Shown: positions 16,228-57,999, numbered from the stretch's first letter. The stretch: DNA of 64,000 nt from Eubacteriales bacterium (GCA_045538555.1 JAZSRP010000043.1:9616-73615), one strand, 5' to 3'. Notes: generated from the letters alone by a model not told the origin. A program made the numbers and translations.

Positions 16228-17193
16228 ATGCCGAATAAAAGAAAAGGCAACGGAGCATACAATTACATGTACTTCTCCGCAGGTCTCATCTGTGTGGTTG
16301 TTGCCATTATCATTGCCTCTTTGATTGCTTTTGTCAATTTTGAGGAGGAAGATATTTCTGAAGATGTTTCGGAGCTTGTTTCAGAGGCAACATCTGAGGT
16401 CATTGTGAGCACTGATGTTTCTGCAGGAGCACAATCCGGGCTGCTTGATGATATCAGAATGGATGATCTTGTTGTTAACAACTCGTCTGTTTTTGATGGA
16501 AAGCTTGCTGTAATCACAAACAACGACGAGTCATATAGAAGCGCTGAGGATTTTGAGCTTGTTAGGTTTTACGGCAACAAAGGAAGTGGCTATGAATTGT
16601 CGGGAACCGGTGTAAAAGTTGAAAAAGAAGCCCAGGAACGTTTTGATGCATTTTTGGTATCTTTTGCTGAAACACTCCCGGGTAGCGGCGTTATCGTGGA
16701 TAAAGGTTATTCTGACCGTGAAACTCTTATAAAAAACAGTTTATTTGATGAATTTGCGGATCTTACGTCCGGAATGTCTGTTTTGCTTGGACTCAGCGGG
16801 AGCGATTATTCATTCTCGTCACCGGAGTTTGCTTATCTATATGAGCAAGCGTATAAGTATGGCATAATCCAGAGGTATCCTGAGAATAAAGAAAGCTCGA
16901 CAAACCATACTGCCAACAAAAAACTGTATCGATATATCGGTATTGCGCATACGCAGTATATGCATATATACAATCTTTCTCTTGAGGAATATCTTGATGC
17001 GCTCAGAAGCAATGATAAGCCGCTCGAGATAACCAGCACACTTGAGCAAAACAAAAAATACGTTGTTTATTATACCGCAATGTCCGGCGGGGCAGGGGAT
17101 ACTACTATCGTAAAAGTTCCTTCTGATCTGCCTTATGAAATTTCCGGAGACGGTTCAGGTGGATTTGTGGTTACTGTAACAATTGAAAATTAA
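16228..17193 (+). CDS. Membrane-anchored VanY/LdcB-like (peptidase M15B fold) protein, probably catalytically inactive
   Basis: N-terminal TM anchor and a GGAGG RBS. The C-terminal block AYKYGIIQRYPENKESSTNHTANKKLYRYIGIAH resembles the YGFIxRYPxxKxxxTGxxYEPWHxRYVG block of D,D-carboxypeptidases. The SxHxxGxAxD and ExxH ligand positions are not conserved. Confidence 0.5.
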   Translation: MPNKRKGNGAYNYMYFSAGLICVVVAIIIASLIAFVNFEEEDISEDVSELVSEATSEVIVSTDVSAGAQSGLLDDIRMDDLVVNNSSVFDGKLAVITNNDESYRSAEDFELVRFYGNKGSGYELSGTGVKVEKEAQERFDAFLVSFAETLPGSGVIVDKGYSDRETLIKNSLFDEFADLTSGMSVLLGLSGSDYSFSSPEFAYLYEQAYKYGIIQRYPENKESSTNHTANKKLYRYIGIAHTQYMHIYNLSLEEYLDALRSNDKPLEITSTLEQNKKYVVYYTAMSGGAGDTTIVKVPSDLPYEISGDGSGGFVVTVTIEN

Positions 17194-17236: not shown

Positions 17237-17656
17237 GATCTTATCAAAAGAACATGCGTTTTGTAAAAATGTGCTTGTTGTAGAATTATTTAAACTCAAG
17301 TTGTGCAATGTGTACACAATATTTGCTTTCACTATTCGAAAAATTCGAGAGAAATAAATTTTAAAAAATCAAGTATATATTTTTTGGCATTTTTCTGAAA
17401 GATAAATGTGTAAATAAAGTTATATATTTTTTGCCTGTTGTGAAACATAAAAATAACGTTTGCCTTTAAAATCAAGGGGTTTTGTTGTGATTAACTTGCC
17501 TCGGCAATTATAAAATTTTCAAATTTAAATTTTGCTTAAAAAATTCATAACAACAAAATTAACAGTTGAAATATGTCGAGATTATTTGTGATTTTTGAGC
17601 AAGTGAGATACATTAGTATAAATTGCATTATTTTGAATCGTGTTTTATATGCACAC

Positions 17657-17686
17657 TTGACAAAATGACGAACCATGTGCTATTAT
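17657..17686 (+). promoter_or_regulatory. Putative sigma-A promoter of the glycan ABC locus
   Basis: TTGACA (17657-17662), an 18-nt spacer, then an extended -10 TGcTATTAT with the hexamer at 17681-17686. Confidence 0.55.
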
Positions 17687-17705
17687 CACATATATAAAAA
17701 TATAC

Positions 17706-17735
17706 CGTGCGTACATATGCGCATATGTGTGCACG
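17706..17735 (+). promoter_or_regulatory. 30-nt quasi-palindrome in the 5' leader (operator or RNA hairpin)
   Basis: Perfect 16-bp palindrome ACATATGCGCATATGT at 17713-17728. It extends to cgtgcgt.../...gtgcacg if G-U pairs are allowed. It lies between the predicted -10 and the RBS. Confidence 0.45.
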
Positions 17736-17769
17736 TATATCCAAAGGATTCTTCGCAGGAGGATTAGAA

Positions 17770-20700
17770 ATGACCAGAATCAGGAGAAAAACCCAAAGCA
17801 TTTGCGTCATGATGCTCGTTTTGGCAATGCTTGTTACAGGCGTTGGCGGGGTGTGCGCATCTGCTATCGGCGATTTTTTTGGTGACTCCGATTCTCTGTA
17901 CCGTACCTCGTTGGAGGATGTTGAGAAGTATCTTACTTCCACAACCTACAATGAGTATATGTCAATTTACGGTTCAACAGAGAAAGTCTCAGAAGAAATC
18001 GTTCTCAACCCCAAGGATTACAACACCGAGCTTACCACCGGTGCTGTAAGTGTTGTCGACTCTCTCGGCAATTACAACGGTGATGTTATCGTTTGCGGTG
18101 ACAACAGTACTGTTTACTGGACGGTTGAGGTTGATAAGCCCGTGCTTTTCAACGTTCTTGTTGAGTATTACACCGGTGACTATGATCTTGGTGAAAATCT
18201 CGCTTCAAAGTCTTCTACCGTTGAGAGATACATTCTCATCGACGGAACTGTTCCCTACAAAGAGGCACGTTCCGTAGAGTTTGAGCGCATTTGGGCCGAT
18301 CAGTATACCGTTGTTGATGCAGAAGGAAAATACGTCCTTGACGAGAACGGCAAGAAGCAAACGTTCCTCTCCAACGAACAGAGATTTATTGACTTTGTTC
18401 TGAAGCAGGAAAATGTTACTTCCGAGAGCGAGCGTCTTTATGTTCGCGATACAAACGGCAACGAGCTAAAGCCCGAGAAAAAACTCATCGCTGACTGGAG
18501 CAAAAAGTTTATCTATGACTCCACAGGTTATTACAACACTCCTTTGTCTTTTTATGTTTCTGAGGGCACACACACCTTTGGAATCCAGGCAGTAAGAGAA
18601 CCTCTTGCTATCAAGAGTATCACTCTTGTTGCTGCTGACACAGCTCCCACCTATGAGGAGTATCTTGAAAGCCACAAGGATGCCAAGGATTACAACGGTG
18701 ACAGCATCATCATCCAAGCTGAGTACGCAGTTCAGACCTCTGAGAGAACTATCTATCAGCTCAATGACAGATCCTCGAGCTTTTCTCAGCCCCAGGATTC
18801 TGCGTTGATCCGTCTCAATGAGATCGGTGGTGACAAGTGGCAGTACGTTGGTCAGTGGATCGAATGGAAGGTTGAAGTTCCCGAGTCGGGCTTCTACACA
18901 ATTGTTCCTCGTAGCCAGCAGAACTATTACTCAGGTATTTACGTTTCAAGACGTATTTACATAAACGGTGAGATGCCTTTCCAGGAAGCATCTTTCCTCA
19001 GATTTGAGTATTCCTCTGATTGGAGCACCAAACCGCTCAACAACGGCAAGCAGGATTTCAAGTTCTACCTCGAAAAGGGTGTCAACACCATCAAGCTTGA
19101 AGTTGTTCTCGGTGATATGTCCGAGATTCTCAGCACGGTTGAAAACTCTCTTGCAGCCATCAACGGTTATTACAGAAAAATACTCATGATTACAGGTCCT
19201 GATGCGGACGATTACCGTGATTACGGCTTTAACAAGCTGATCCCCGATGTTCTCACCGGACTCAAGGATCAAGCAAAGCTTCTCTACGGTGTATCAGATT
19301 TGCTCACAGAGCTGACCGGTGAAAAGGGCGAACACTCCTCCACACTTGACCGTGTGGCTCTCATCTGCGAGAGAATGGGTACCAACCAAAAGACAATTGC
19401 GTCTCAGATGGATACTCTCAAGGACTACACCGCGTCCCTTGGTTCTTGGCTCTCTGATACTCAAAACCAGCCCCTTGATCTGGATTATTTCAGCATCCAG
19501 GCGCCTTCCGCAGATACCCCCGAAGCTGAACCCGGTTTCTTTAAGAGTTTTTGGTTTGAGCTTCAGAAATTTTATGAGTCGTTCTTCAACGATTACAACT
19601 CTCTTGGTTCCGTCGGTGAGGACGGAAAGGTACAGGAAGTTGTAAGCGTAGAGGTTTGGACCGCGTCCTCCCGCGACCAAGCACAGATCATCAGAACACT
19701 TGTTGACGACAACTTTGCGATGAAATATCCCGGACTCTCCGTTGATATCAAGCTTGTTGCAGGCGGCACGTTGCTTCCCGCAACACTTGCAGGAACCGGT
19801 CCCGATATTTATTTGGGTGCTGCACAGGGAGACCCTGTAAACTACGCTATCCGTTCTGCGGTGCTGTCTCTCAACACAAAGACCGGCAACAACCAGATAG
19901 GATATGATTTTACCGACCTCGAAAATTCCGTTTGGAATTCCAAAGACGAAGCCGGCAACTACAAGTATCCTACCTACCATGCTCTGATTGAGTCCGGCAG
20001 TGTCAGGAACTTTGGTGAGGTCAAAGAGTGGTTTGCTGATCAAGCACTTATTCCTCTTACTCTTTACGGCGAGACCTATGCGCTTCCTGAGACGATGTCG
20101 TTCTCTATGATGTTCTACCGCAAAGACATATTTGTGGATCTGGGCATCAGCGTTCCCAATACCTGGGATGATTTCTACGATATTATATATTCTCTGCAGT
20201 CCAACTCGCTGGAGATCGGATTCCCCACAGGTACCGGCGGATCCATGGTACTTATGTATCAGCAGAATGATCCTCTCTACGATATGGGCAACTACGATTA
20301 CTATACTGAGCTGTTCAGACGTTACTATTATGAAGGCGACGATTATGACAGTCTCAATGAGCAACAGATTGCCGAGATTGACAAAAAGCTCAATGATATG
20401 GGTCTTACATACACCGATGCAGACGGAAATGTTGTTACCAAGACTGACGGCATGACCATCAATCTTGATTCTGATATTTCACTCGCAGCTTTCAAGGACG
20501 TATGCCAGCTGTTCACAATGTACGACTTTGACGTTACATACAGCTTTGCAAACAGATTCCGTTCCGGTGAGATGCCTCTCTCCATCATTGATTACACTTC
20601 CTATAATACACTTATAGTATTTGCACCCGAGATCAACGGTTTGTGGGAATTCACACCGCTTCCCGGCACGGCAGATCCTCTCACTCAGGAGGTAAACAAC

Positions 20701-21183
20701 GTTACTATCGGCGCCGTTTCCGCTCTGATGATGATGAGATCTGTTGATGAGGCAACTGCATTTGCAGCATGGACATTTATGCAATGGTATCTCAGCGCTG
20801 AGATACAAAGTGCATACGGCAACGAGATGGTTGCTCTCCTTGGACCTTCTGCAAAACAACCTACTGCAAATATGCTGGCTCTTCAGGATATGGCATGGTC
20901 TACCGACGAGTATAACAACCTGTTTGCTCAGTTTAATGCGGTTGCATGTACACCTGAGTTCCCCGGTGGATATATTATCGGAAGATATACAAACTTTGCG
21001 TTCCTTGACGTATACAACGACGGCGCAGAGCCCGTTGACGAGCTTCAGTCTTACATAGTTGACATCAACGTTGAGCTGACCAGAAAGAGAGAAGAGTTTG
21101 GGCTTCCCACTGACAAGTCGGTAAAAGAAATGATAGAAGCAGTCAACCAAAAATACAAAGACTGGGATAAAGGAGGGAATTAA
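17770..21183 (+). CDS. Giant extracellular solute-binding protein (ABC family-1 SBP core) with N-terminal tandem CBM-like modules
   Basis: About 1137 aa, with an AGGAGGA RBS and a signal peptide (MTRIRRKTQSICVMMLVLAMLVTG). Two similar beta-sandwich-like modules are present (YWTVEVDKPVLFNVLVEYY..RYILIDG and IEWKVEVPESGFYTIVPRS..RRIYINGE). The C-terminal half is typical of sugar SBPs (VEVWTASSRDQAQIIRTLVDDNFAMKYPGLSVDIKLV..GTGPDIYLG). Confidence 0.75.
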   Translation: MTRIRRKTQSICVMMLVLAMLVTGVGGVCASAIGDFFGDSDSLYRTSLEDVEKYLTSTTYNEYMSIYGSTEKVSEEIVLNPKDYNTELTTGAVSVVDSLGNYNGDVIVCGDNSTVYWTVEVDKPVLFNVLVEYYTGDYDLGENLASKSSTVERYILIDGTVPYKEARSVEFERIWADQYTVVDAEGKYVLDENGKKQTFLSNEQRFIDFVLKQENVTSESERLYVRDTNGNELKPEKKLIADWSKKFIYDSTGYYNTPLSFYVSEGTHTFGIQAVREPLAIKSITLVAADTAPTYEEYLESHKDAKDYNGDSIIIQAEYAVQTSERTIYQLNDRSSSFSQPQDSALIRLNEIGGDKWQYVGQWIEWKVEVPESGFYTIVPRSQQNYYSGIYVSRRIYINGEMPFQEASFLRFEYSSDWSTKPLNNGKQDFKFYLEKGVNTIKLEVVLGDMSEILSTVENSLAAINGYYRKILMITGPDADDYRDYGFNKLIPDVLTGLKDQAKLLYGVSDLLTELTGEKGEHSSTLDRVALICERMGTNQKTIASQMDTLKDYTASLGSWLSDTQNQPLDLDYFSIQAPSADTPEAEPGFFKSFWFELQKFYESFFNDYNSLGSVGEDGKVQEVVSVEVWTASSRDQAQIIRTLVDDNFAMKYPGLSVDIKLVAGGTLLPATLAGTGPDIYLGAAQGDPVNYAIRSAVLSLNTKTGNNQIGYDFTDLENSVWNSKDEAGNYKYPTYHALIESGSVRNFGEVKEWFADQALIPLTLYGETYALPETMSFSMMFYRKDIFVDLGISVPNTWDDFYDIIYSLQSNSLEIGFPTGTGGSMVLMYQQNDPLYDMGNYDYYTELFRRYYYEGDDYDSLNEQQIAEIDKKLNDMGLTYTDADGNVVTKTDGMTINLDSDISLAAFKDVCQLFTMYDFDVTYSFANRFRSGEMPLSIIDYTSYNTLIVFAPEINGLWEFTPLPGTADPLTQEVNNVTIGAVSALMMMRSVDEATAFAAWTFMQWYLSAEIQSAYGNEMVALLGPSAKQPTANMLALQDMAWSTDEYNNLFAQFNAVACTPEFPGGYIIGRYTNFAFLDVYNDGAEPVDELQSYIVDINVELTRKREEFGLPTDKSVKEMIEAVNQKYKDWDKGGN

Positions 21184-21186
21184 ACA

Positions 21187-22122
21187 ATGGCAAAAGAAAA
21201 AGCGATAATCAGAAGCGATATATCGCGCTTCAAATGGACATTGATGGAAATGAAGAAGCACAAAGCCGGATATATGATGGCACTTCCGTTCTTTATTCTG
21301 TTCTTCATATTTACTGTTGTCCCGGTACTTCTTTCGTTTGTACTCAGTTTTACCACTTTCAACCTTCTTGAGTGGCCCACATTTGTGTTTATGGATAACT
21401 ACATCCGTCTCATTCTTGATGACGATATCTTCATAGTAGCTATCAAAAACACTCTAAAGTTCTCTGCTATCACCGGTCCCTGCTCGTATCTGTTGAGTAT
21501 GCTTTTTGCATGGTTTATCAACGAGTTGAGACCCAAGCTGAGATCGTTTGTAACACTTCTCTTTTACGCACCTTCAATTTCGGGTCAGGTATATCTGATC
21601 TGGACAATCTTCTTCAACTCCGACCAGTACGGTTACGTCAACGCTTGGGGCATGAAACTTGGTCTCATCAATGAGCCGGTTCTTTGGTTCCAGGATGAAA
21701 AATACATCTTTGGACTCATCGTTGCCGTTGCTCTTTGGACTTCGCTTGGTACATCGTTCCTGACGTTTATTGCAGGTTTCCAGGTTGTAGACAAAGGTTT
21801 GTATGAGGCAGGAGCTGTTGACGGTGTCAAGAATCGTTGGCAGGAGCTTTGGTTCATCACTCTGCCTACAATGCGTCCGCAGATGATGCTGGGTGCAATT
21901 CTTGCAATCACCGGTTCGTTTGGATTTGGTGCAGTTATTACTGCTCTGGTTGGATTCCCCAGCCCCAACTACTGTGCACATACAATCATGCACCATCTTG
22001 AGGACTACGGTAATGCGCGTTTTGAGATGGGTTATGCATCCGCAATTGCTACCATCCTCTTCTTTATGATGATTGGTGCCAATATGCTGGTTACAAAAAT
22101 GCTGAGAAAGGTAGGTACGTAA
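21187..22122 (+). CDS. Carbohydrate ABC transporter permease (MalF-like), pair 1
   Basis: 6-TM protein with an EAA-loop YEAGAVDGVKNRWQELWFITLPTMRP and an AGGAGGG RBS. Confidence 0.9.
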   Translation: MAKEKAIIRSDISRFKWTLMEMKKHKAGYMMALPFFILFFIFTVVPVLLSFVLSFTTFNLLEWPTFVFMDNYIRLILDDDIFIVAIKNTLKFSAITGPCSYLLSMLFAWFINELRPKLRSFVTLLFYAPSISGQVYLIWTIFFNSDQYGYVNAWGMKLGLINEPVLWFQDEKYIFGLIVAVALWTSLGTSFLTFIAGFQVVDKGLYEAGAVDGVKNRWQELWFITLPTMRPQMMLGAILAITGSFGFGAVITALVGFPSPNYCAHTIMHHLEDYGNARFEMGYASAIATILFFMMIGANMLVTKMLRKVGT

Positions 22123-22123
22123 T

Positions 22124-23041
22124 ATGTCTTTTGCAGACCTTAAGAAAAAATATCGTAACTACCGCAACAAAAAGCTTCAGAACAAAACGCAGTTCAAGCG
22201 TTCTGTCAACAGATCTGCAGGCGGTGACGCAGGAATCTTTATTCTGCTCGGTGTGGTTGCTGTAATCATGGTTCTTCCTATGGTTTACGCAATCTGCCAA
22301 TCACTCAAACCTCTTGACGAGTTGTTTGTTTTCCCGCCCAGATTCTTTGTGGTTAATCCCACATTTAAAAACTTTAGAGACCTTTTCAATTTGATGAATG
22401 AGTCTTGGGTTCCTTTCTCCAGATATATCTTCAACACGGTTCTTATCTCTGTTGTTGGTACATTTGGTAACGTTATCTTTGCATCCTATGCAGCATATGC
22501 GCTTGCAAAGATCAACTTCCCCGGAAGAAAGTTTTTGTTCTCCGTGGTCGTTTACTCCCTGATGTTCAACTCCACCGTTACCGGCATTACAAACTTTATT
22601 ACAATGTCTGCTCTCGGTTGGGTTGATACATATCTTGCAGTTATCGTTCCCGCATTCTGCTACACATTCGGCCTCTACCTGATGAAGCAGTTTATGGAAT
22701 CCTCGGTTACCGACTCTGTTCTTGAAAGCGCTCGTCTTGAGGGCGCAAATGAGAATCTGATCTTCTGGCGTATCGCAATGCCTATGGTAAAGCCCGCTTG
22801 GATCACTTTGATCATCTTTGCTTTCAAGGATCTGTGGAATATGGGCGCAAGCTTGTATATTTACAGTGAGGAGCTCAAGACATTTAACTATGCTATCAGC
22901 CAGTTGGTTACCGCTGGTATTGCACGTTCCGGCGTATCAGCCGCGGCAACCGTTGTTATGATGATCGTTCCCATTACCGTATTTGTTGTTACACAAAGCC
23001 AGGTAATCACAACGATGTCAACTTCTGGTATGAAAGATTAA
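22124..23041 (+). CDS. Carbohydrate ABC transporter permease (MalG-like), pair 1
   Basis: EAA-loop LESARLEGANENLIFWRIAMPMVKP. It starts 1 nt after the preceding stop. Confidence 0.9.
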   Translation: MSFADLKKKYRNYRNKKLQNKTQFKRSVNRSAGGDAGIFILLGVVAVIMVLPMVYAICQSLKPLDELFVFPPRFFVVNPTFKNFRDLFNLMNESWVPFSRYIFNTVLISVVGTFGNVIFASYAAYALAKINFPGRKFLFSVVVYSLMFNSTVTGITNFITMSALGWVDTYLAVIVPAFCYTFGLYLMKQFMESSVTDSVLESARLEGANENLIFWRIAMPMVKPAWITLIIFAFKDLWNMGASLYIYSEELKTFNYAISQLVTAGIARSGVSAAATVVMMIVPITVFVVTQSQVITTMSTSGMKD

Positions 23042-23052
23042 GGAGGGTAAAA

Positions 23053-25266
23053 ATGAAAAATAGATTTGTTCGCACCCTGCTTGTCTGTCTCGTGCTGGTT
23101 ATGTTTTTTGGAACAATTTCTGCAAGTGCTATTGTTCCTTATACCAGCTACACCTACAACGTATACGGCGTTATGGCTACCAGCCCTCACGCATACGTTC
23201 CCCACGTTGTTGTCAACACCGCAACACTTCTTGAATCCCTTACAGAAGAGGGTGGTGCCAGCGATAACGCAAAAGCAATGCATGGACCAAACTCTGACGA
23301 TCCTTTTGTAGCGTTGGAGTCTCCCAAAGATATCTTTGTAGATGATCTCGGCCACATTTATATTGCCAACACCGGCGCAAACCAGATTGTTGTCACCGAC
23401 GAGAACTACAATGTCCGTGTTATAATCAGCGCTTTTACAAACCAATATGGTGTTCCCGATGCTCTCAATACTCCAAGTGGTGTGTTTGTTACATCCAACG
23501 AGATTTTTGTAGCAGATACCGAGAACTCCCGTATCGTCGTATTTGACAAACTCGGAAATTTTGTGGATATCATTCCCGAGCCCGAGAGCGAAGTACTTCC
23601 CGATAACAGCGTTTACAAGCCCGTTGCTGTTGCTGTTGACAAAGCCGGACGTGTTTACGTTGTATCTTCTACCACAAACTATGGTGTTGTTTCTCTGAAC
23701 AGAGATGGCTCTTTCAACGGATTTATCGGACCTCAAAAGGTTACGTACAATTTGCTGGAGCATTTTCTCCGTCTGTTCAAGACCGCAGACCAGCTGGCTG
23801 CAAGTGAGCAGAACGTTTCAACAGAGTTTAACAACCTTACCATTGACGCTGACGGTTTCATCTACGTTACAACATCTTCAGTTGATGAAGGATCCCGCGC
23901 CGCAGCTATCACAGGACGCAGCAAGTCCGGTGACTATGCTCCCGTAAAGAAACTCAACCCCAATGGTTCTGACGTCATGAACAGAAACGGCTTCTGGCCG
24001 CCCTCCGGCGAGGTTGATTTCAGAAACATGGCAACTACCGAGTTTAAGACCTCAGGTCCTTCCACTATCGTCGACGTTGCACTTGGTCCCAACAACACTT
24101 GGAGCATCATTGACAACAAGAGAAGCAGGATTTTCACCTATGATTCCAACGGCAACCTTTTGTATGCCTTTGGTGACACAGGCAACCAGCTCGGCAGTAT
24201 TTCAAACCTTGTTGCAATCGATTATCAGGACACCAACATGCTCCTGCTTGATCGAAGCAACGAGTCTATCACTGTTTACAAGCGTACTACATACGGTGAT
24301 CTGGTTGCGCAGGCAATCCAAAACACTGAGGATAAGCAGTACGACAAAGCTGTTGAATACTATATCAGCATTCTTCAGAGAAACAACAACTATGATACCG
24401 CATACGTGGGAATCGCACAGAGTATGTACCGTGACGGTGAGTATGTTCAGGCAATGAAGTACTACAAATACGCGTACAACACTGAGGATTACTCAGAGGC
24501 ATATCAGGCATACCGTAAAGAATGGATGGAAAAATACATCTGGGTCATTCCTCTGGTTCTGTTTGTAGCGATTTTTGGCATTTCAAAGTTTTTCAAATAT
24601 GCCAAGAAGGTCAACAAGCAGGGGCAGAAGCGTGTTGAAAAACGCACCTTCTGGCAGGAGGTATTGTATGGATTCCATATTATCTTCCACCCGTTTGACG
24701 GTTTCTGGGATGTAAAACACGAGAAGCGCGGATCTGTCAGAGGCGCAAGTTTTTGGCTGGGAATCACCGCTCTCACATTTGTGTATCAGTCGGTTGGTAC
24801 CGGTTATCTTTCCAATCCTTATGGCACAACCGGTTCATATTTCATCAGCGCAATTTCAATTATACTTCCCGCAATGCTTTGGGTTACTGCAAACTGGTGT
24901 TTGACAACACTGTTTGACGGCGAGGGTACATTCAAGGACGTTTACATTGCGACCTGCTACTCACTTGTACCGCTGCCCATGCTTATCATTCCTACCGTCA
25001 TGATCTCCAACGTTCTCACTCTTGAGGAACTTGATATCGTTGCTATGATCAACTCATTGGCATTTATCTGGCTCGCTCTGCTTGTGTTCTTTGGCATGAT
25101 GGTTACACATGATTACACCCTCGGAAAGAACTTCCTCACCACGCTGGGAACAATCGTTGGTGCAGCATTTATTATATTTGTTGTTGCGCTGTTCTCCGCA
25201 CTTGTTACCAAGGTGTTCACGTTCTTCTATAACATTTACATCGAGCTCTCTTACAGATGGTCGTAG
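23053..25266 (+). CDS. Signal peptide + NHL-repeat beta-propeller + TPR + C-terminal Yip1-type 5-TM domain fusion protein
   Basis: AAGGAGGG RBS. NHL-like blades include IFVDDLGHIYIANTGANQIVV, VFVTSNEIFVADTENSRIVVFD and VAVDKAGRVYVVSS. A TPR-like pair follows (QYDKAVEYYISILQ..GEYVQAMKYYKYAY). The Yip1/DUF1282-like membrane domain begins at HPFDGFWDVKHEKRGS. Confidence 0.65.
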   Translation: MKNRFVRTLLVCLVLVMFFGTISASAIVPYTSYTYNVYGVMATSPHAYVPHVVVNTATLLESLTEEGGASDNAKAMHGPNSDDPFVALESPKDIFVDDLGHIYIANTGANQIVVTDENYNVRVIISAFTNQYGVPDALNTPSGVFVTSNEIFVADTENSRIVVFDKLGNFVDIIPEPESEVLPDNSVYKPVAVAVDKAGRVYVVSSTTNYGVVSLNRDGSFNGFIGPQKVTYNLLEHFLRLFKTADQLAASEQNVSTEFNNLTIDADGFIYVTTSSVDEGSRAAAITGRSKSGDYAPVKKLNPNGSDVMNRNGFWPPSGEVDFRNMATTEFKTSGPSTIVDVALGPNNTWSIIDNKRSRIFTYDSNGNLLYAFGDTGNQLGSISNLVAIDYQDTNMLLLDRSNESITVYKRTTYGDLVAQAIQNTEDKQYDKAVEYYISILQRNNNYDTAYVGIAQSMYRDGEYVQAMKYYKYAYNTEDYSEAYQAYRKEWMEKYIWVIPLVLFVAIFGISKFFKYAKKVNKQGQKRVEKRTFWQEVLYGFHIIFHPFDGFWDVKHEKRGSVRGASFWLGITALTFVYQSVGTGYLSNPYGTTGSYFISAISIILPAMLWVTANWCLTTLFDGEGTFKDVYIATCYSLVPLPMLIIPTVMISNVLTLEELDIVAMINSLAFIWLALLVFFGMMVTHDYTLGKNFLTTLGTIVGAAFIIFVVALFSALVTKVFTFFYNIYIELSYRWS

Positions 25267-25284
25267 AAAGGAGTGTATGTTATT

Positions 25285-28200
25285 ATGAAAAATAAATTTA
25301 TAAGATCATTGGCACTCATTGTCTGCGTCATGATGATTTTTTCATCCCTGACCTGCTTGTCTGCCTTTGCTGACAACAGCGATACTTCTTCTGCAACCAC
25401 ATCCGGCACAACGTCCGGTACAACCTCAGGTTCAACATCAGGCTCGACCTCTGGAGATACCTCTGAGGAGGATATCTGGGAGACACTGCAGCCCGCATAT
25501 ATGCAGACTGCTTTTACCTCTATTGTAAAAAGAATGGAAGGTAACGACACCATCGCTCCCATGATTTGCTATGCAGTGGTTGAGGGATATGCATTTTATG
25601 GCGATCCTCTCACCGGTGAGATGGTATTTCTCAAGCTCACTGATCCCACTCTTACAAAAGAAGTCATTGAGGAGTCAGGCGTAATTCCCGACTACACCGC
25701 ATATTATTGCACCAATCCCTACAACATTGGCTCTTCAGCCGCAATCGGCAACGAGAGCGGTCAGCAGACTGCCGCATCCGAAAAAGAAAAGCTCTACTCC
25801 CAGCTCATTATCAAATACACTGATAACGACAAGGATACAGAGATGAACTCCTTTACAGATGCCGCTGTACGCAACCAGATAACCGTCAAGAATATCAGAA
25901 ACGGTGTCCGTGTTGAGTATACTGTTGGACGTGAAGAGGTCAACTACCTTGTTCCTCGTCTTATCAAAGCCGACAAGCTGTTGGCTCTGAGAGACCAGAT
26001 TGCCGCAAACTCGCAGATCGCAAGAGATGCAAGAACGTTTATGGCATTCTATATGCACAAAGACCTTGAGGATCCCAACCTTTCCGAAAAAGGAAAGGCG
26101 GAGATGGAAGCTCAGTATCCCATCACCAAGCAGTTTCCGATCTATGTCTGTGAGCCTCTTATCTCCACACAGGAGCTTTTGAGACTTGAACGTCTTGTGG
26201 TTCAATATACAACATATGACTATGAAACGCTTGAAGCAGACCACGCTGAGACAGACTATGAATCGTCTGACGAGGTTCCCGCTCTGTTCAAGCTGGCGCT
26301 TGAGTACAAGGTTGACGGAAACGAGATCACAATCCGTTGCAAGTCCGGCAACATCAGATTTGACTCATCTGTTTACAAGCTTTCCGATATTGTTCTTCTG
26401 CCTTATGGCGGTGCAGGAGACTGCAACAACGAGGGTTATCTCTTCTCACCGGACGGCTCCGGCTCGTTGCTCAATTTCTCTGATTTTTATGAGGAATTCA
26501 ACAACACCACACCTCTCTACGGTCAGGACTACGCATATCACACCATCAGCGGTGCAAACTACGAGGTTGCAAGACTTCCTGTGTTTGGTGTCTACCAAAA
26601 GGTAGAAAACAACAGCACCGAGATTCAAAAACAGCCCGTGCTTGACGAGCAGGGGCAACCCACCTATGATGAGGAAGGAAATCCCATCATGGAGGACGTA
26701 GAGGTTTCTGTGCCTCTTGAGATCGCATATCTTGCAGTTGTTGAGACTGGTTCTTCACTGGCAAACATCACCACAAGATATGGCGGAAATCTCCATATGT
26801 ACGCCTCTGTGTATACCTCATTTAACCCCAGACCCAAGGACTCATACGTACTTGACGGCGGTATCTCTGCAGGTACTGATGCGATGTGGACGGTTGAGTC
26901 AAAGAGAAAATACACAGGAGACTATAAGATCCGTCTCTTCATTCTTGATGGTACAGAGGACGGCGACGTAGCTCCCGGAATCGGCGATGCAGAAAAATCC
27001 TATTCTGATATGGCTGCGGCTTATCGTACCTACTTGTTGGAAGAAGGCGTTTTGACAAAGCTTGAAGATACCAAGGAAAATATTCCTCTTTATCTCGAGA
27101 CTTTGGGCGCGATCGAGACAACACGTACCGTGCTTGGCGTTCCTGTAACAACAACCGTTGCGATGACTAGGTTTGAAGATACAAAGAACGTTTTGGAAAC
27201 TCTCAAAAACGAGGGTGTCACCAACGTCAAAGTCAAACTCACCGGTTGGTACAACGGCGGCATGATTCCTTATGTTCCCACCTCCATTGATATTGAGAAA
27301 TGCATGGGCGGTGAGGAAGGATTTAAAGACCTGCTTGACTATGCAAACCAGAACGGCATCACGATTTTCCCTGATATCGAACTTTCGCTTGCATTTAGAG
27401 ACAAGACATTTGACGGATTTGATTCCGGCGACGATCTTTCTCAGACCATCGACGAGCGTTCTGCAATCATGAAAGAGTATGATCCTATCTGGCAGGGCTA
27501 TATCAAGACAGGTATCGGTGTAATTTCTCCCAACTTTATGAAAGAACTTTACACCAAAGCATATGAGGATTACGGCACACTGAACGTTGGAGCAATTTCT
27601 GTTGGTTCTGTTGGCAAATACTTGTCATCTGATTTCAACACAGACAATCCTTTGACTCGTGAGGATTCCAGAGAGCTGATCGCTCAGCTTATGTCTGCAA
27701 TAGCTGAAAACAATAATAAAGTTCTTGTTTCCGGCGGTAACGAGTACGTTCTTGAGTACGTAACCGATATTATCGAGCTTCCTCTTGATGACTCGAGATA
27801 CAAGCACTCCTATGCAACAGTTCCTTTCATGAGCATGGTGCTTCACGGAACAAAAGAGTATGCAGGAACCGCACTCAACCTTGCAGGTGATTACAACTAT
27901 CAGGTTCTCAAGTCCATTGAGTCCGGTGCTGCTCCTTACTTTGTAGTTGCTTCACAGAACACTTCTGAGATGAAGCAGTACACCTATTCAATCCTTGCAC
28001 AGTATTATTCTATCAGATGCAACATCTGGCTGGCTGACATCATCAAAACATACAAAGAGATGAACGAAGCGCTGTGCGATGTTCAGTCTGAGTCCATCCG
28101 CAAGCATGAGCTTCTCACCGCTGACGGAAAGGTTTCCAAGGTTACTTACTCCAACGGCGTTTCGTTCTACATCAACTACCGTATCACTGATTATACCGTA

Positions 28201-28296
28201 GTCGATAATGGAAACGAATATGTGATTCCTGCTGAAGGATACATCAAACTTGCAGCCGATGGTACGGTTGTATTGAAAGGGGAGGGAGACAGATGA
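25285..28296 (+). CDS. Large secreted protein of unknown function, DUF5696-like (possible TIM-barrel glycoside-hydrolase-like core)
   Basis: Signal peptide (MKNKFIRSLALIVCVMMIFSSLTCLSAFA) followed by a (T/S)SG linker repeat. The C-terminal half has a barrel-like pattern (VKVKLTGWYNGGM..GGEEGFKDLLDYANQNGITIFPDIEL). The family name is from memory and is unverified. Confidence 0.5.
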   Translation: MKNKFIRSLALIVCVMMIFSSLTCLSAFADNSDTSSATTSGTTSGTTSGSTSGSTSGDTSEEDIWETLQPAYMQTAFTSIVKRMEGNDTIAPMICYAVVEGYAFYGDPLTGEMVFLKLTDPTLTKEVIEESGVIPDYTAYYCTNPYNIGSSAAIGNESGQQTAASEKEKLYSQLIIKYTDNDKDTEMNSFTDAAVRNQITVKNIRNGVRVEYTVGREEVNYLVPRLIKADKLLALRDQIAANSQIARDARTFMAFYMHKDLEDPNLSEKGKAEMEAQYPITKQFPIYVCEPLISTQELLRLERLVVQYTTYDYETLEADHAETDYESSDEVPALFKLALEYKVDGNEITIRCKSGNIRFDSSVYKLSDIVLLPYGGAGDCNNEGYLFSPDGSGSLLNFSDFYEEFNNTTPLYGQDYAYHTISGANYEVARLPVFGVYQKVENNSTEIQKQPVLDEQGQPTYDEEGNPIMEDVEVSVPLEIAYLAVVETGSSLANITTRYGGNLHMYASVYTSFNPRPKDSYVLDGGISAGTDAMWTVESKRKYTGDYKIRLFILDGTEDGDVAPGIGDAEKSYSDMAAAYRTYLLEEGVLTKLEDTKENIPLYLETLGAIETTRTVLGVPVTTTVAMTRFEDTKNVLETLKNEGVTNVKVKLTGWYNGGMIPYVPTSIDIEKCMGGEEGFKDLLDYANQNGITIFPDIELSLAFRDKTFDGFDSGDDLSQTIDERSAIMKEYDPIWQGYIKTGIGVISPNFMKELYTKAYEDYGTLNVGAISVGSVGKYLSSDFNTDNPLTREDSRELIAQLMSAIAENNNKVLVSGGNEYVLEYVTDIIELPLDDSRYKHSYATVPFMSMVLHGTKEYAGTALNLAGDYNYQVLKSIESGAAPYFVVASQNTSEMKQYTYSILAQYYSIRCNIWLADIIKTYKEMNEALCDVQSESIRKHELLTADGKVSKVTYSNGVSFYINYRITDYTVVDNGNEYVIPAEGYIKLAADGTVVLKGEGDR

Positions 28297-29294
28297 CAAA
28301 CGACATGACCAAAAAAACCAAGGTTTCTTCTCCTTCTGAATCTGCGCCCGTAAAACAAAAGAAGCGCAGATCCAAATCACTTCAAACTCAAAAATCCCGT
28401 ATGGGTTGGGTGTTTATATCACCGTTTTTGATCGGATTTTTCCTGATCTATCTGCCCATGATTGTTGAATCGGTTCAGTTTTCGTTCAGCAAGGTCATCA
28501 TTCAGGGCGGCGGCGGATTCAAGCTCGAAAACGTTGGCTGGGAGAACTACTCCTACGCAATACTCAAAGACGTTGACTTTGTAGAAACACTCATCTCCAG
28601 CATTAAGGAATTGTTGTTCAACGTTCCCGCAATCGTTATTTTCTCGTTGTTTATGGCAGTTATGCTCAACCAGAAAATGCGCGGCAGAGCGATTTTCAGA
28701 GCAATATTCTTTATCCCGGTCATTGTTTCTACAGGTATTATTGAGTCGATTGACTTGAGAAACAGCCTTGCTGCAAACATGGAGTCCATGACTCAGGGCG
28801 AGACCGGTATGGACAATACCAGCGCAGGAAACCAGATCATTTCAGCAATGGACGTTGCTGCTTTGTTTGGAAGCATGAGGGTCGGCGGTCAGCTTGTTGG
28901 CTACGTTACTACTATTGTCAATGATGTGTACGATATCGTCAACAAGTCCGGTGTACAGATGCTTATATTCCTTGCAGGTCTTCAGTCCATTTCTCCTGCA
29001 ATCTATGAGTCCTGCTATATTGACGGCGCTTCCGCATGGGAGACTTTCTGGAAAATCACATTCCCGATGATCAGCCCCATGATACTTGTAAATGCTGTCT
29101 ATACGGTCATTGACTCGTTCACGTCACAGTCCAATCAGGTTATGACCTATATTTCTGCGGTCTATAACTCACAGAACGGTACTGTCAGAGCAACGGCGAT
29201 GTCCTGGATGTACTTCCTGCTCGTCGTAGCAATTCTGGCTCTGGTGGCAGGTTTGCTGAGTGCATACGTCTTCTATCAGAGACGCGATACTTGA
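28293..29294 (+). CDS. Carbohydrate ABC transporter permease (MalF-like), pair 2
   Basis: ATGA overlap with the upstream gene and a GGGAGGGAG RBS. The EAA-loop is YESCYIDGASAWETFWKITFPMISP. Confidence 0.85.
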   Translation: MTNDMTKKTKVSSPSESAPVKQKKRRSKSLQTQKSRMGWVFISPFLIGFFLIYLPMIVESVQFSFSKVIIQGGGGFKLENVGWENYSYAILKDVDFVETLISSIKELLFNVPAIVIFSLFMAVMLNQKMRGRAIFRAIFFIPVIVSTGIIESIDLRNSLAANMESMTQGETGMDNTSAGNQIISAMDVAALFGSMRVGGQLVGYVTTIVNDVYDIVNKSGVQMLIFLAGLQSISPAIYESCYIDGASAWETFWKITFPMISPMILVNAVYTVIDSFTSQSNQVMTYISAVYNSQNGTVRATAMSWMYFLLVVAILALVAGLLSAYVFYQRRDT

Positions 29295-29313
29295 GAAAGG
29301 AGGAACAGCTTTT

Positions 29314-30390
29314 ATGGATACTTCCACAATGACAAAGCAAGAGTTGAAGGAATACCAAAAACAACTCAAGCGCGAAGAAGCCATCCGCAAGATCAAGATG
29401 CAGGAAAAGACTCCGTTTTGGATGAGACTGAAGTACAAGTATCTCACTTTCTACTTCCTGAAAAAATTGGCCTGGTCCCTGTTTAGATTCATCCTTTTGG
29501 TTGGTATTTCTTACGTTATCCTGTTCCCCTATATCTCCAAAATCGCCGGTTCGTTCATGAGCCGTGAGGATTTTACGGACGTTACCGTAAAGCTTATTGC
29601 AAAATATCCTACTCTCGATACATACAAAGCAGTTATTACCGATAACCAGTATTTCAAAGCACTTTTCAACACGTCTGTGCTTTCTGTGCTTTGCGGTGTA
29701 TCACAGATGCTGATTTGTTCTATCGTTGGTTATGGTTTTGCAAAATTCAAGTTCAGATTCAAAAAACTCTTGTTCCTGTGCGTCATTTTTACAATGATTG
29801 TTCCCCATGAGACCATCCAGCTGTCAATGTTCATGAAATTTAGATATTTTGACATCTGGGGTATCTACGGATTTATCGCCAAGAACATTTTTGGATCCAC
29901 CGAAGCCACTCCCGCTATTTGTAATATGCTCAACTCCTATTGGCCGTTTATGGTTTTGTCAATCACCGGTCTTGCATTCAAAAACGGGTTGTACATTTAC
30001 ATCATGCGTCAGTACTTCAACGGTGTACCCGATGAGCTTGAGGAAGCAGCGTACGTTGATGGCGCAGGCGTTATCAAGACTTTTGTGAGAATTATTCTTC
30101 CGATGTCAGTTCCCATGCTTGTTACCATCTTTATGTTTGCGTTCTCTTGGCAGTGGTCCGACACCTTCTACACCGGCCTCTTCTTTACAACCACCAAGGG
30201 CAGAGTACTGCTTCCTGATATTGTAAAGATTCCCGCTTCACTGGATACTGACTATGTAGCACAGACAGCATATGAAGCAGCTATCAGAAATACCTGCGGA
30301 TTGCTTATACTTGCTCCGTTAGTTATCATCTATATGTTTGCTCAGCGTACTCTGATCGAAGGCGTAGAGCGCAGCGGTCTGACCGGCTGA
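29314..30390 (+). CDS. Carbohydrate ABC transporter permease (MalG-like) with ~60-aa charged N-terminal extension, pair 2
   Basis: The AAGGAGG RBS supports ATG 29314. The EAA-loop is EEAAYVDGAGVIKTFVRIILPMSVP. Confidence 0.85.
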   Translation: MDTSTMTKQELKEYQKQLKREEAIRKIKMQEKTPFWMRLKYKYLTFYFLKKLAWSLFRFILLVGISYVILFPYISKIAGSFMSREDFTDVTVKLIAKYPTLDTYKAVITDNQYFKALFNTSVLSVLCGVSQMLICSIVGYGFAKFKFRFKKLLFLCVIFTMIVPHETIQLSMFMKFRYFDIWGIYGFIAKNIFGSTEATPAICNMLNSYWPFMVLSITGLAFKNGLYIYIMRQYFNGVPDELEEAAYVDGAGVIKTFVRIILPMSVPMLVTIFMFAFSWQWSDTFYTGLFFTTTKGRVLLPDIVKIPASLDTDYVAQTAYEAAIRNTCGLLILAPLVIIYMFAQRTLIEGVERSGLTG

Positions 30391-30408
30391 TACCGTTTTT
30401 GCATGAAT

Positions 30409-30447
30409 ATGCCCGTACACCTGATGGTGTACGGGCATGTTTTTTTG
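30409..30447 (+). terminator. Rho-independent terminator closing the ABC locus
   Basis: atgcccgtacacc-tgat-ggtgtacgggcat followed by a T7 run. Confidence 0.85.
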
Positions 30448-36771: not shown

Positions 36772-37339
36772 AAATAGCGGACCAATTGACATTTTTTCTG
36801 CAGAAGAGCTGATCCTTGAATTACTTCAAAAAAAACCATCCGAGCCTGTTTTTGTAGCAATCGATGGCGAAATCGGAGCAGGGAAGTCATATTTTGCAAA
36901 TTTAATGCACGAAAAACACTGTCTTTCGGTTGTGCATACCGATGACTTTTATAAACCCGGTTTTGATCCAAAAAAACCTCCTGTATTTGATGGAAATATT
37001 GATTTTGAACGTCTGTGCAGAGAGGTTTTTTTTCAAACATCAGATATATTTTCTTATGGTGTGTTTGATTGTTTTGTGCAGACAAATGTTTGCCAAAGAA
37101 TGATTGATGCAAGAAAACCGATCATTATTGAGGGAACTTATTCTCTCCACCCAAGAATATCTCAACGATATTCATTGAAGTTGTTTTTTGAAACAGCTGA
37201 GGATGTGAGAGACAACCGCATTTCCGCCCGTGGACCGGATGCCGAAAAACGTTTGACAAATATTTGGATCCCTGCCTCAAAGAGATATTTTGAGCATTAC
37301 AAAATTAAAGAACGTTGCCACGCAGTTGTAAAAACTTGA
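36761..37339 (+). CDS. Uridine-kinase-like P-loop NTPase
   Basis: Walker A IDGEIGAGKSY, then HTDDFY and IIIEG motifs as in the uridine kinase/PRK family. ATG 36761 lies 7 nt after AAGGAG. Confidence 0.6.
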   Translation: MWAKNSGPIDIFSAEELILELLQKKPSEPVFVAIDGEIGAGKSYFANLMHEKHCLSVVHTDDFYKPGFDPKKPPVFDGNIDFERLCREVFFQTSDIFSYGVFDCFVQTNVCQRMIDARKPIIIEGTYSLHPRISQRYSLKLFFETAEDVRDNRISARGPDAEKRLTNIWIPASKRYFEHYKIKERCHAVVKT

Positions 37340-37353
37340 AAGGAATCGAAAGA

Positions 37354-39111
37354 ATGAGCGTTTTTTGTTATAATGAGAAAAGTTTCTTGCTTGACGAAAC
37401 AGAGTTTCAGATTATATCAGGATCTATCCATTATTTTCGGACCGTTCCGCAATATTGGCGGGACAGATTGAGAAAGCTCAAACAATGCGGATTCAATACA
37501 GTCGAAACATATACATGCTGGAACCTCCACGAGAGGCGCGAGAACGAGTTTTCGTTTGAAGGTATACTTGACCTCGGTCAGTTCCTGGATATTGCCAAGG
37601 AAGAAGGTCTGTACGCCATTGTAAGGCCGGGGCCGTATATCTGCGCAGAGTGGGAGTTTGGCGGTCTGCCTTCCTGGCTTTTGAAGTACGAAAACATCCA
37701 TATCCGATGCCGCAATCCCATCTTTTTGGAAAAAGAAAAAAGATATCTGTCAAAACTGTTTGAAATCATTGTACCGCGGCTTATAACAAACGGCGGAAAC
37801 ATCCTGATGGTACAGGTAGAAAACGAGTATGGATCATATGGAAATGATCACGATTACATCAACGAGCTTGCAGATTTTTACCGTCAATGCGGAATTGATA
37901 CCGTTCTTTTTACTTCTGACGGAGCAAACGAGATGTTTCTCGGAGGCGGAACAGTTCCTGATCTTTTACCAACCGCAAATTTTGGATCGGATTTTAAAAC
38001 CTGGTTTGGTGAATTGGAACGCTTGCGCCCCGGGTTTCCAAAAATGTGCGCTGAGTATTGGGACGGTTGGTTTGATACCTGGCACGAGCCCCATCACAGA
38101 CGAATCCCCGATGATGTACCTCAACAGTTGGACGGTATTATATCAAGCGGCGGCAATGTGAATTTTTATATGTTTTGCGGTGGAACAAACTTTGGATTCC
38201 ACAATGGAGCAAATATAATTGACGGAAAGATTTGCCCTCAGACCACCAGTTATGATTATGATGCGATGTTGACTGAGGAGGGCGACCTTACAGAACGGTA
38301 TTTCAGATGCAGAGAAGTGATTGAAAAGCATTTTGGCACGCTTCCTCCGCTTACTGTAAACAATACAAAAAAAATGAGCTATGGCAAAGTATTGTTGAAA
38401 GAAAGTTCTTCTGTCATAAAGTACGCAAAAAACAACGTAGATCCAATAGTTTCAGCTTTTCCGCAGAGTTTTGAAGAACTGGGCATTGATTTTGGATTTG
38501 TACTGTACAGCACAACAATCGATTATGAACTGCCTGAAACAGAGATCATAATCGAACCCGTTAGGGACAGAGCGATTATTTTTATCAACGGAATATATGC
38601 AGGCACAAAAGAGCGTGATCGTCGTGACGACAGGGTTACTGTTTCTGTTAAAAAAGGCGAAACGGTGCAGGTCGATGTTCTGATGGAAAATATGGGCCGT
38701 GTCAATTATGGGCAGTATATGCTTGACAACAGAAAAGGGATAACAACCGGCGTTAGAACAGGACAGCAATATCTGTTTGGCTGGAAGATGTACCCAATGA
38801 CAATGGATGATCTTTCAAATGTTGTCTTTGACCGTGAAAAAGGGTTTACAGAGCCCGCATTTTTGAAAGGTGAATTTGCTGTCGACGGAACCCCGTGTGA
38901 TACTTTTGTACGCCTTGACGGGTTTAAAAAAGGATTTGTATGTGTAAACGGTTTTAATATCGGTAGATATTGGAATACCGCGGGTCCGCAAAAAACTTTA
39001 TACTTGCCTGCGCCGCTTCTAAAAAAAGGAAATAATACCGTTGTCGTCTGCGAGCTTGACGGTTATGAACAAGCAGAGATATGTCTTACTGATGTTCGTG
39101 ATCTCGGTTGA
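37354..39111 (+). CDS. Beta-galactosidase, glycoside hydrolase family 35
   Basis: GSIHYFRTVPQYWRDRLRKLKQCGFNTVETY, RPGPYICAEWEFGGLPSWL, and VQVENEYGSYG carrying the acid/base Glu. Confidence 0.9.
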   Translation: MSVFCYNEKSFLLDETEFQIISGSIHYFRTVPQYWRDRLRKLKQCGFNTVETYTCWNLHERRENEFSFEGILDLGQFLDIAKEEGLYAIVRPGPYICAEWEFGGLPSWLLKYENIHIRCRNPIFLEKEKRYLSKLFEIIVPRLITNGGNILMVQVENEYGSYGNDHDYINELADFYRQCGIDTVLFTSDGANEMFLGGGTVPDLLPTANFGSDFKTWFGELERLRPGFPKMCAEYWDGWFDTWHEPHHRRIPDDVPQQLDGIISSGGNVNFYMFCGGTNFGFHNGANIIDGKICPQTTSYDYDAMLTEEGDLTERYFRCREVIEKHFGTLPPLTVNNTKKMSYGKVLLKESSSVIKYAKNNVDPIVSAFPQSFEELGIDFGFVLYSTTIDYELPETEIIIEPVRDRAIIFINGIYAGTKERDRRDDRVTVSVKKGETVQVDVLMENMGRVNYGQYMLDNRKGITTGVRTGQQYLFGWKMYPMTMDDLSNVVFDREKGFTEPAFLKGEFAVDGTPCDTFVRLDGFKKGFVCVNGFNIGRYWNTAGPQKTLYLPAPLLKKGNNTVVVCELDGYEQAEICLTDVRDLG

Positions 39112-40561: not shown

Positions 40562-40770
40562 AAAATCACCTCTGATATCATATTAAACCACTTAATTATA
40601 CAACATTTTTGTAAAAAGTAAAATACTTTTTTTCAAAAAAATGAAATAAATACATACAAGATATACCGCAAATTTTTGTTATACAAATCAAACAATATTG
40701 ATTTTGCGGTAGATGTATGATATTATAAAATTAAATATAAGATAAAAAATAACGCACGGGGAGTTTATTG

Positions 40771-57898: not shown

Positions 57899-57999
57899 GA
57901 TAGTTCCTTTCATCATTTGTGCGTAACTATCAAAAGCAATTATTGAGGAATTGAATACAACAAATACAGCTTTTTGTTATATCAAATATCCTCAGGATA

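Follow-up and report, generated by a model that had tools for sequence, protein, structure and literature searches.

Importers of the CUT1 type in Firmicutes, such as AraNPQ, GanSPQ and YesOPQ of B. subtilis with their ATPase MsmX, combine a family-1 solute-binding protein (SBP) with MalF/MalG permeases carrying EAA loops and an ATPase whose gene does not lie in the operon (PMC7658222, PMC5730181). An SBP and permeases of these kinds, and likewise no ATPase, are encoded at the locus analyzed here, which occupies positions 17770 to 30390 of a 64,000-nucleotide stretch of DNA from an Eubacteriales bacterium (GCA_045538555.1 JAZSRP010000043.1:9616-73615; this whole stretch is hereafter the window) and comprises seven tightly packed, co-directional open reading frames (ORFs) on the + strand. 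The locus nevertheless departs from every described importer, as it has two permease pairs instead of one, an oversized and unanchored SBP that lacks a lipobox and is predicted to carry tandem modules resembling carbohydrate-binding module (CBM) family 35 together with a helical bundle, and, obligately embedded between the two pairs, a Yip1-family subunit and a protein resembling glycoside hydrolase (GH) family 129. We read the operon as an extracytoplasmic system for the capture, trimming and import of a complex, probably alpha-linked glycan through two CUT1 translocators and a shared ATPase, and assign this reading a probability of about 0.6.

Gram-positive polysaccharide utilization loci (gpPULs) and the SusCD utilisome of Bacteroidota likewise encode glycan-binding modules, a surface glycosidase and a transporter together. 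In the usual definition, attributed to Sheridan et al. 2016, a gpPUL is said to comprise a degrading enzyme, a transporter and a transcriptional regulator in one place, and since no regulator is present in cis the locus falls outside this definition; relative to the SusCD utilisome, it has neither a TonB-dependent transporter nor SusD, and any physical complex of its products is hypothetical. The embedded Yip1 protein has a parallel in YknWXYZ, where a Yip1-family protein is encoded with a Firmicute ATP-binding cassette (ABC) transporter and is needed for its assembly (PMC4887032). However, YknYZ belongs to the MacB-type exporters and has a membrane-fusion protein, while the translocators at this locus are importers of type I, and YknW lacks any extracellular propeller or TPR, whereas the Yip1 domain here carries an extracellular NHL/TPR part of ~480 amino acids. 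For the GH-like DUF5696 protein the closest described relatives are the GH129 enzymes NagBb and DagB, with which it has in common its domain architecture, the recognition of a NagBb fragment by the Pfam family PF18952 and an invariant Asp after strand 4. It differs from them in an additional N-terminal region of ~400 amino acids, a signal peptide and a Ser/Thr linker, and its gene is embedded in an ABC operon, while NagBb and DagB are stand-alone enzymes.

The seven genes encode, in order, the giant SBP (17770..21183), the MalF/UgpA-like permease P1 (21187..22122) and the MalG/UgpE-like permease P2 (22124..23041) of the first pair, an NHL/TPR/Yip1 membrane protein of 737 amino acids (23053..25266), a secreted or anchored DUF5696 protein of ~1000 amino acids (25285..28296), and the divergent MalF-like permease P3 (28293..29294) and the MalG-like permease P4 (29314..30390) of the second pair, all on the + strand. 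The gaps between neighboring genes measure at most 20 nt (21183/21187 and 22122/22124 are examples), and at 28293-28296 there is an overlap, an ATGA that joins the P3 start to the DUF5696 stop. A GGAGG-type ribosome-binding site precedes each start that was read at the sequence level (17770, 21187, 23053, 25285 and 29314), the first of them being AGGAGGA at 17757-17763. Because of the positions of these sites we have revised two starts: the DUF5696 gene most likely begins at ATG 25285, with GGAG 8 nt upstream, instead of GTG 25273, and the P4 gene at ATG 29314, after AGGAGG, instead of GTG 29260. A promoter-like site (TTGACA-18-TATTAT, 17657-17686) precedes the first gene, and an intrinsic terminator (17-bp stem, then a T run; 30405..30442, + strand, sequence scan) follows the last, and from this arrangement the seven genes are predicted to form a single transcription unit. 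The initial annotation of this DNA had described the same seven same-strand genes, with the same junctions and bounded by the same promoter and terminator, and in these respects it is accurate.

To place the locus among its relatives, one genome per GTDB species was scanned with a DUF5696 alignment, which returned 276 relatives, and the best 80 loci were used, with the gene order in each found by searching the locus ORFs with the seven window proteins. All 80 come from uncultured Clostridia (Eubacteriales, Oscillospiraceae, 'Ruminococcus'), sampled from ruminant, rabbit, chicken, horse and human guts, with a few metagenome-assembled genomes from groundwater. The order SBP-P1-P2-NHL/Yip1-DUF5696-P3-P4 on one strand is seen in 80 of 80 loci with no exceptions (60 complete and 20 cut by contig ends) and holds down to 37-40% DUF5696 identity; with the same genes in the same order in every locus, the arrangement is not a product of chance. 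Outside this clade, tblastn and plasmid records revealed the same order at ~25% DUF5696 identity on Butyrivibrio fibrisolvens D1 pNP243 and on a 509-kb plasmid of Paenibacillus cellulosilyticus. Each window gene has a positional ortholog in both the Butyrivibrio (Lachnospiraceae) and the Paenibacillus (Bacilli) locus, and the giant SBP aligns with its orthologs there over nearly its full length. The Butyrivibrio copy is extended by neighboring genes for a GH43 enzyme, a histidine kinase with its response regulator and two lipoprotein SBPs, and metagenomic relatives of this locus retain the extended version. It is clear that all seven genes are obligately co-inherited across two classes of Bacillota, and the sequence comparisons further indicate that a large clade of uncultured Oscillospirales from rumen and gut carries the cassette as a vertically inherited part of its core genome. 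The initial annotation had stated that sets of SBP, permease, Yip1 and DUF5696 genes recur in Firmicutes, and the 80 loci together with those in Lachnospiraceae and Paenibacillaceae bear this out.

The single oversized binding protein that had been annotated is 1137 amino acids long, ~2.6-3 times the normal length, and Pfam SBP_bac_8 recognizes only residues ~759-1038 of it (34.5 bits against a cut-off of 27), on the C-terminal third. The AlphaFold2 (AF2) model of this protein (pLDDT 79.5) begins with an N-terminal hydrophobic helix, either a signal or an anchor, followed by four domains: beta-sandwiches at residues ~77-290 and 313-446, a four-helix bundle at 450-565 and a family-1 binding fold at 625-1130. 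In Foldseek comparisons the binding fold lies closest to sophoro-, cycloisomalto- and malto-oligosaccharide binding proteins, with target TM-scores of 0.73-0.79 (best 5yse, E 8e-15, TM-score 0.79). A profile of the second sandwich matches the CBM35 of cycloisomaltooligosaccharide glucanotransferase (CITase; 5x7g, E 1e-4) and, weakly, other CBM35 modules; the first sandwich alone had no significant match in the PDB (E about 1), and the two sandwiches are paralogous (hhalign 95.8%). At the level of sequence, then, the giant SBP is predicted to carry tandem CBM35-like modules, and these lend support to the earlier suggestion that the machinery captures glycan. No conserved lipobox Cys was found in 38 orthologs of the giant SBP, nor in the giant SBPs of Butyrivibrio and Paenibacillus; the ordinary SBPs encoded beside the Butyrivibrio cassette have the lipoboxes AAGC and ISGC. 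The giant SBP would therefore be held at the surface by other means, either an uncleaved anchor or a partner protein.

The two permease pairs were characterized from their translations and domain matches. All four proteins contain BPD_transp_1 and are of UgpA/UgpE/MalF/MalG types in Pfam and NCBIfam (P1 is UgpA/PotB-like in NCBIfam, and the domain lies at residues 223-329 of P3), with EAA loops that are canonical in P2 (residue 201) and P4 and variant in P1 (YEAGAVDG) and P3 (YESCYIDGAS). The two MalF/MalG-type heterodimers with EAA loops that were previously annotated thus stand, with the P1 and P3 loops as variants. Because permeases of the BPD_transp_1 family that carry EAA loops belong to importers, an export function was rejected. 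P1 is 43-55% identical to its positional orthologs in Paenibacillus and Butyrivibrio and only ~22% identical to P3, and P2 and P4 are likewise far closer to their positional orthologs than to each other; the positional orthologs of P3, which has an insertion of about 100 amino acids, are 32-43% identical. Because positional orthologs are closer than the members of one pair are to those of the other, the pairs are an ancient, maintained feature rather than a recent duplication, and by sequence P1/P2 and P3/P4 are anciently distinct CUT1-type heterodimers.

The low identity between P1/P2 and P3/P4 (~22%) could also be explained if two independent ABC importers simply share an operon, with the giant SBP serving P1/P2 only, P3/P4 working with lipoprotein SBPs encoded elsewhere and the Yip1 protein not acting as a scaffold. 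In the Butyrivibrio-type loci, two ordinary lipoprotein SBP genes with lipoboxes stand directly after P4 (16345-19775 in locus L081, and also in L083 and L084), and in L029 a single ORF after P4 (14546-16081) is weakly SBP-like (35 bits, with no Pfam match); such neighbors hint that P3/P4 can use conventional binding proteins. The pairs, however, are never apart in the 80 loci or in the two distant lineages, P3/P4 always follow the NHL/Yip1 and DUF5696 genes, and in most loci there is no second SBP gene nearby. We therefore regard two unconnected importers as a rather doubtful explanation, but one that deserves some weight beside the preferred capture, trimming and import system.

With respect to the ATPase, no LSGGQ-type ABC signature occurs in the six frames of the window, and a Paenibacillus UgpC/MsmX-type ATPase used as a tblastn query against the window gave nothing below E 0.2, in agreement with the initial annotation, which had found no nucleotide-binding subunit in these 64 kb. 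In Paenibacillus, a gene for an ATPase of this type lies directly upstream of the cassette, its end 37 nt away from the giant SBP gene, and MsmX-like ORFs lie a few kb downstream of the cassette in two of the relatives (L041 and L053). It is well established that one 'multitask' ATPase is common to several CUT1 importers in Firmicutes (PMC7658222, PMC5730181), and with such sharing the absence of an ATPase gene from the locus is ordinary.

The DUF5696 protein (Pfam E 2e-144) is the candidate for the trimming step. Its AF2 model, built with 35 homologs (pLDDT 79.8, pTM 0.77), consists of a signal peptide, a disordered Ser/Thr-rich linker, N-terminal mixed domains, a beta-sandwich, a (beta/alpha)8 barrel and a C-terminal beta-sandwich. 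The top Foldseek matches in the PDB are the Zobellia 3,6-anhydro-D-galactosidase DagB (5opq, E 2e-27) and the B. bifidum alpha-N-acetylgalactosaminidase NagBb (5wzn, E 7e-22), both with a target TM-score of about 0.69, and the next are GH101, GH36 and GH31 enzymes. GH129, GH101, GH36 and GH31 are families of retaining alpha-glycosidases. The succession of beta-sandwich, (beta/alpha)8 barrel and beta-sandwich in the model is the three-domain architecture described for GH129 (PMC5698469). At the sequence level, a 133-residue fragment of NagBb scores 37.6 bits on Pfam DUF5696 (PF18952) against a cut-off of 25.6, so that a Pfam family labeled as being of 'unknown function' already holds a characterized CAZy enzyme. 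Other comparisons are weaker: a profile of the clade against the PDB had NagBb as its sole match, at E 3.5, phmmer with a single DUF5696 sequence found no PDB relative, and hhalign against a NagBb-type sequence (87.5%, E 3.6e-6) aligned 144 columns covering barrel strands 1-3 only. The barrel carboxylates D714, D787 and E883 (numbered from GTG 25273) are invariant in the window's clade, in Butyrivibrio and in Paenibacillus, and are thus kept across lineages at only ~25% identity, which makes catalytic competence likely.

Taking the model and these sequence relationships together, the DUF5696 protein is probably an alpha-glycosidase-like surface enzyme of the GH129 superfamily. As neither sequence similarity nor catalytic-residue correspondence settles membership in GH129 proper, we have not filed it there, and by sequence we would rather place it in a distinct subfamily within the GH129/PF18952 superfamily than count it as a bona fide GH129 member. 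The initial annotation had proposed that an accessory protein depolymerizes the glycan, for which the predicted fold (GH129/GH101/GH36/GH31) and the Pfam match now provide support, and it had named beforehand, as grounds for abandoning its reading, membership of the accessory proteins in characterized families with a known substrate. The DUF5696 protein turns out to be a very distant relative of CAZy family GH129, but the structural alignments to GH129 enzymes have only 11-13% identity and the GH129 substrate is therefore not transferable to it. The DUF5696 family is large: in public data it forms 5,140 clusters when grouped at 50% identity (E <=1e-3). Of the 148 family representatives that scored highest among those newly found by the profile search, 61 exceed 1300 amino acids. 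No Pfam domain was found in the 1,000-1,500-residue extensions of four long relatives (P0304, P0342, P0319 and P0369), and in the one that was read (P0304) an Ala/Glu/Lys-rich, coiled-coil-like insertion of ~1100 amino acids lies between the barrel and the last beta-sandwich.

The remaining accessory protein, between P2 and the DUF5696 protein, has Pfam matches to Yip1 (E 7e-14) and NHL (E 4e-11) and a weak one to TPR. The Yip1 match (PF04893) is nearly complete, with 52.5 bits against a cut-off of 28.6 over profile positions 2-172 of 173. The predicted layout is a signal peptide, an NHL beta-propeller at ~60-410, TPR at ~415-480, a transmembrane helix at 496-514, a Lys/Arg-rich loop and a Yip1 domain at 542-737, where the hydrophobic segments correspond to five transmembrane helices. 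The signal peptide, together with a transmembrane helix followed by a Lys/Arg-rich stretch (the positive-inside rule), places the propeller and TPR on the outside. The NHL propeller is six-bladed and closest to the PknD sensor and to Pizza designs; a lyase- or lactonase-type enzyme was considered for it and rejected, the closest relatives being PknD-type sensor propellers. In Butyrivibrio, NHL and YIP1 are separate adjacent genes (the YIP1 product has 206 amino acids), while in Paenibacillus and elsewhere they are fused, a textbook indication from gene fusion that the two act together. Only one studied bacterial Yip1 protein was found in the literature, YknW of Bacillus, which modulates how the ABC transporter YknXYZ is assembled (PMC4887032).

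Under the reading that we prefer, the CBM modules would retain the polymer at the surface of the cell, alpha-linked residues would be removed or fragments cut out by the GH129-like enzyme, and the binding domain of the SBP would hand the resulting oligosaccharide to P1/P2. P3/P4 would carry a second product, fed either by the same giant SBP or by ordinary lipoprotein SBPs encoded elsewhere, and a shared MsmX/UgpC-type ATPase, also encoded elsewhere in the genome, would energize both translocators. More speculatively, and by analogy with the role of YknW for YknXYZ, the Yip1 protein may tether or organize the two non-lipidated ectoproteins and the two translocators. A further step would be to suppose that all seven proteins assemble into a single supercomplex in the membrane, as a Gram-positive equivalent of the utilisome of Bacteroidota. 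In it, the Yip1 domain would dock the two ABC translocators and the NHL/TPR ectodomain would hold the CBM-bearing SBP and the GH129-like enzyme. The polymer would then be captured and trimmed in place, and two kinds of product channeled into the two importers without release to competitors; we put this forward tentatively and consider it unlikely. Where it can be tested against the data at hand, the Gram-positive PUL-like machine of the initial annotation is supported, its function being inferred.

Several points weigh against our interpretation. The significant CBM35 match is limited to the second beta-sandwich, we cannot explain how two translocators would share a single binding protein, and that the parts associate physically is conjecture. 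Housekeeping genes surround the cassette in the window's clade, with no other carbohydrate-active enzyme (CAZyme) or regulator, unlike typical nutrient PULs. The literature offers no help: no publication was found on DUF5696 or PF18952, nor relevant work on Yip1 with an SBP or on Yip1 with a GH or ABC protein, which agrees with the initial annotation in that no functional description was known. A further difficulty concerns the catalytic residues. NagBb and DagB share only the nucleophile Asp, D435 in NagBb and D486 in DagB (PMC5698469), and D435 of NagBb extrapolates to a position 7 Pfam-profile positions before the invariant D787, and the expected strand (the strand-6 region) yielded no conserved candidate for the acid/base residue. 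The GH129 catalytic residues could thus not be mapped onto the DUF5696 protein, and it could be non-catalytic.

A corresponding alternative would make the DUF5696 protein, the NHL propeller or both into non-catalytic receptors, so that the locus would encode a transporter-coupled sensor or binding platform with no surface depolymerization. The affinity of the NHL domain to the PknD sensor propeller points in this direction, as does the fact that an acid/base residue is not identifiable beside the three invariant barrel carboxylates, and many DUF5696 relatives have long coiled-coil-like insertions typical of surface stalks. Against it stand the invariance of D714, D787 and E883 at ~25% identity and the retention of the whole three-domain GH129 architecture (PMC5698469), and no signaling output domain was found by Pfam. 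We consider this alternative very improbable.

The genomic surroundings raise the question of whether the cassette serves the cell's own envelope. Upstream of the locus in the window are genes for pyruvate:ferredoxin oxidoreductase (PFOR) and, immediately adjacent at 16228-17193, a membrane-anchored VanY-like (M15) peptidase; downstream are those for a HAD hydrolase, DUF1846, MatE and an M32 peptidase. Of 58 loci, 56 have a VanY-like gene adjoining the cassette; it lies upstream in 53 of them and downstream in the other 3, the latter being divergent loci with a Pfam-VanY gene directly downstream of P4 (15349-16719 in L072, and also in L074 and L080). When CAZymes and regulators were sought beside divergent cassettes, only housekeeping genes appeared (VanY, a radical-SAM protein, PurL, AlaRS, CarB and AdhE). 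The VanY adjacency could be plain synteny, as PFOR is kept too, or it could reflect a functional link to the cell wall. A role in turnover or recycling of wall-associated glycan, as opposed to foraging, would fit a core, vertically inherited locus among PFOR, VanY-like and housekeeping genes that has a strong, conserved promoter and no nearby regulator or other CAZyme. This is difficult to reconcile with the Butyrivibrio copy, which has genes for GH43, a sensor kinase pair and additional sugar SBPs as neighbors, or with the Paenibacillus copy, which is on a megaplasmid and has no VanY; moreover, the retention of PFOR alongside VanY means that synteny alone explains the adjacency in most loci, and the SBP fold is closest to proteins that bind exogenous oligosaccharides. 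An envelope role therefore seems improbable to us, and uptake of an external glycan remains the interpretation that we favor.

The regulation of the operon was approached through its upstream region. The promoter (17645..17686, + strand) consists of the box TTATATGCAC at 17645-17654, which abuts the -35 hexamer TTGACA at 17657-17662, and an extended -10 TGcTATTAT at 17678-17686; in a consensus scan it matches 11 of 12 positions, with a TG extension, and outscores every other site in the region. Conservation across related loci extends to the box and both hexamers, with ATATGCA directly upstream of the -35 in 23 of 42 (upstream regions of L001-L073), including loci at only ~45% DUF5696 identity. 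The TTATATGCAC box could be an UP element or an activator or repressor site. Near the predicted mRNA 5' end, a stem-loop in the 5' untranslated region (17700..17740, + strand; RNAfold -17.1 kcal/mol, z -3.4) keeps its position in relatives whose stems are unrelated in sequence (42 loci, median z -2.3), and possibly acts as an mRNA stabilizer or regulatory site. No Rfam match was found in the whole window, and there is thus no known riboswitch in the 575-bp leader. The otherwise variable leader contains two conserved motifs just past the terminator of the VanY-like gene, GAACATGCGTTTTGT at 17250-17264 and the palindrome-like TGTGCAATGTGTACACA at 17302-17318, the latter having a perfect palindrome, TGTGCA-ATA-TGCACA, as its counterpart in one relative (L003). 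TGCAC-type half-sites recur at about -440, at -45 in the promoter box and in the hairpin of the untranslated region. No regulator gene was found at the window locus or in the flanks of the 80 relatives, so that the absence of a regulator claimed by the initial annotation stands in cis; it does not extend to trans, as the conserved promoter-region motifs and recurring half-sites hint at a regulator encoded elsewhere and suggest that the operon is controlled in trans.

Other genes in the window bear on the organism itself. A dockerin-bearing DUF4855 protein with F5/8 type C and Ig-like domains (40768-43974), a GH35 beta-galactosidase (37315-39111) and a GH20 hexosaminidase with FIVAR (55271-57916) mark it as a glycan degrader with cellulosome-type anchoring. 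Two adjacent ORFs on the - strand, at 8391-9941 and 9945-10610 (516 and 221 amino acids), have no Pfam match at E 1e-3.

The cassette is widespread in Oscillospirales, Lachnospiraceae and Paenibacillaceae, yet no literature on it was found, and its architecture does not fit the textbook importer of one SBP and one permease pair. The link between DUF5696 and GH129, which relies on the predicted fold and on profile matches, provides a first functional handle by pointing to chemistry of the alpha-glycosidase type, and it suggests that many 'DUF5696' annotations may hide an unclassified glycoside hydrolase subfamily. Since Butyrivibrio fibrisolvens D1 and Paenibacillus cellulosilyticus KACC 14175 are cultured carriers, the system is directly testable, and it could show how Gram-positive bacteria couple depolymerization at the surface to uptake.

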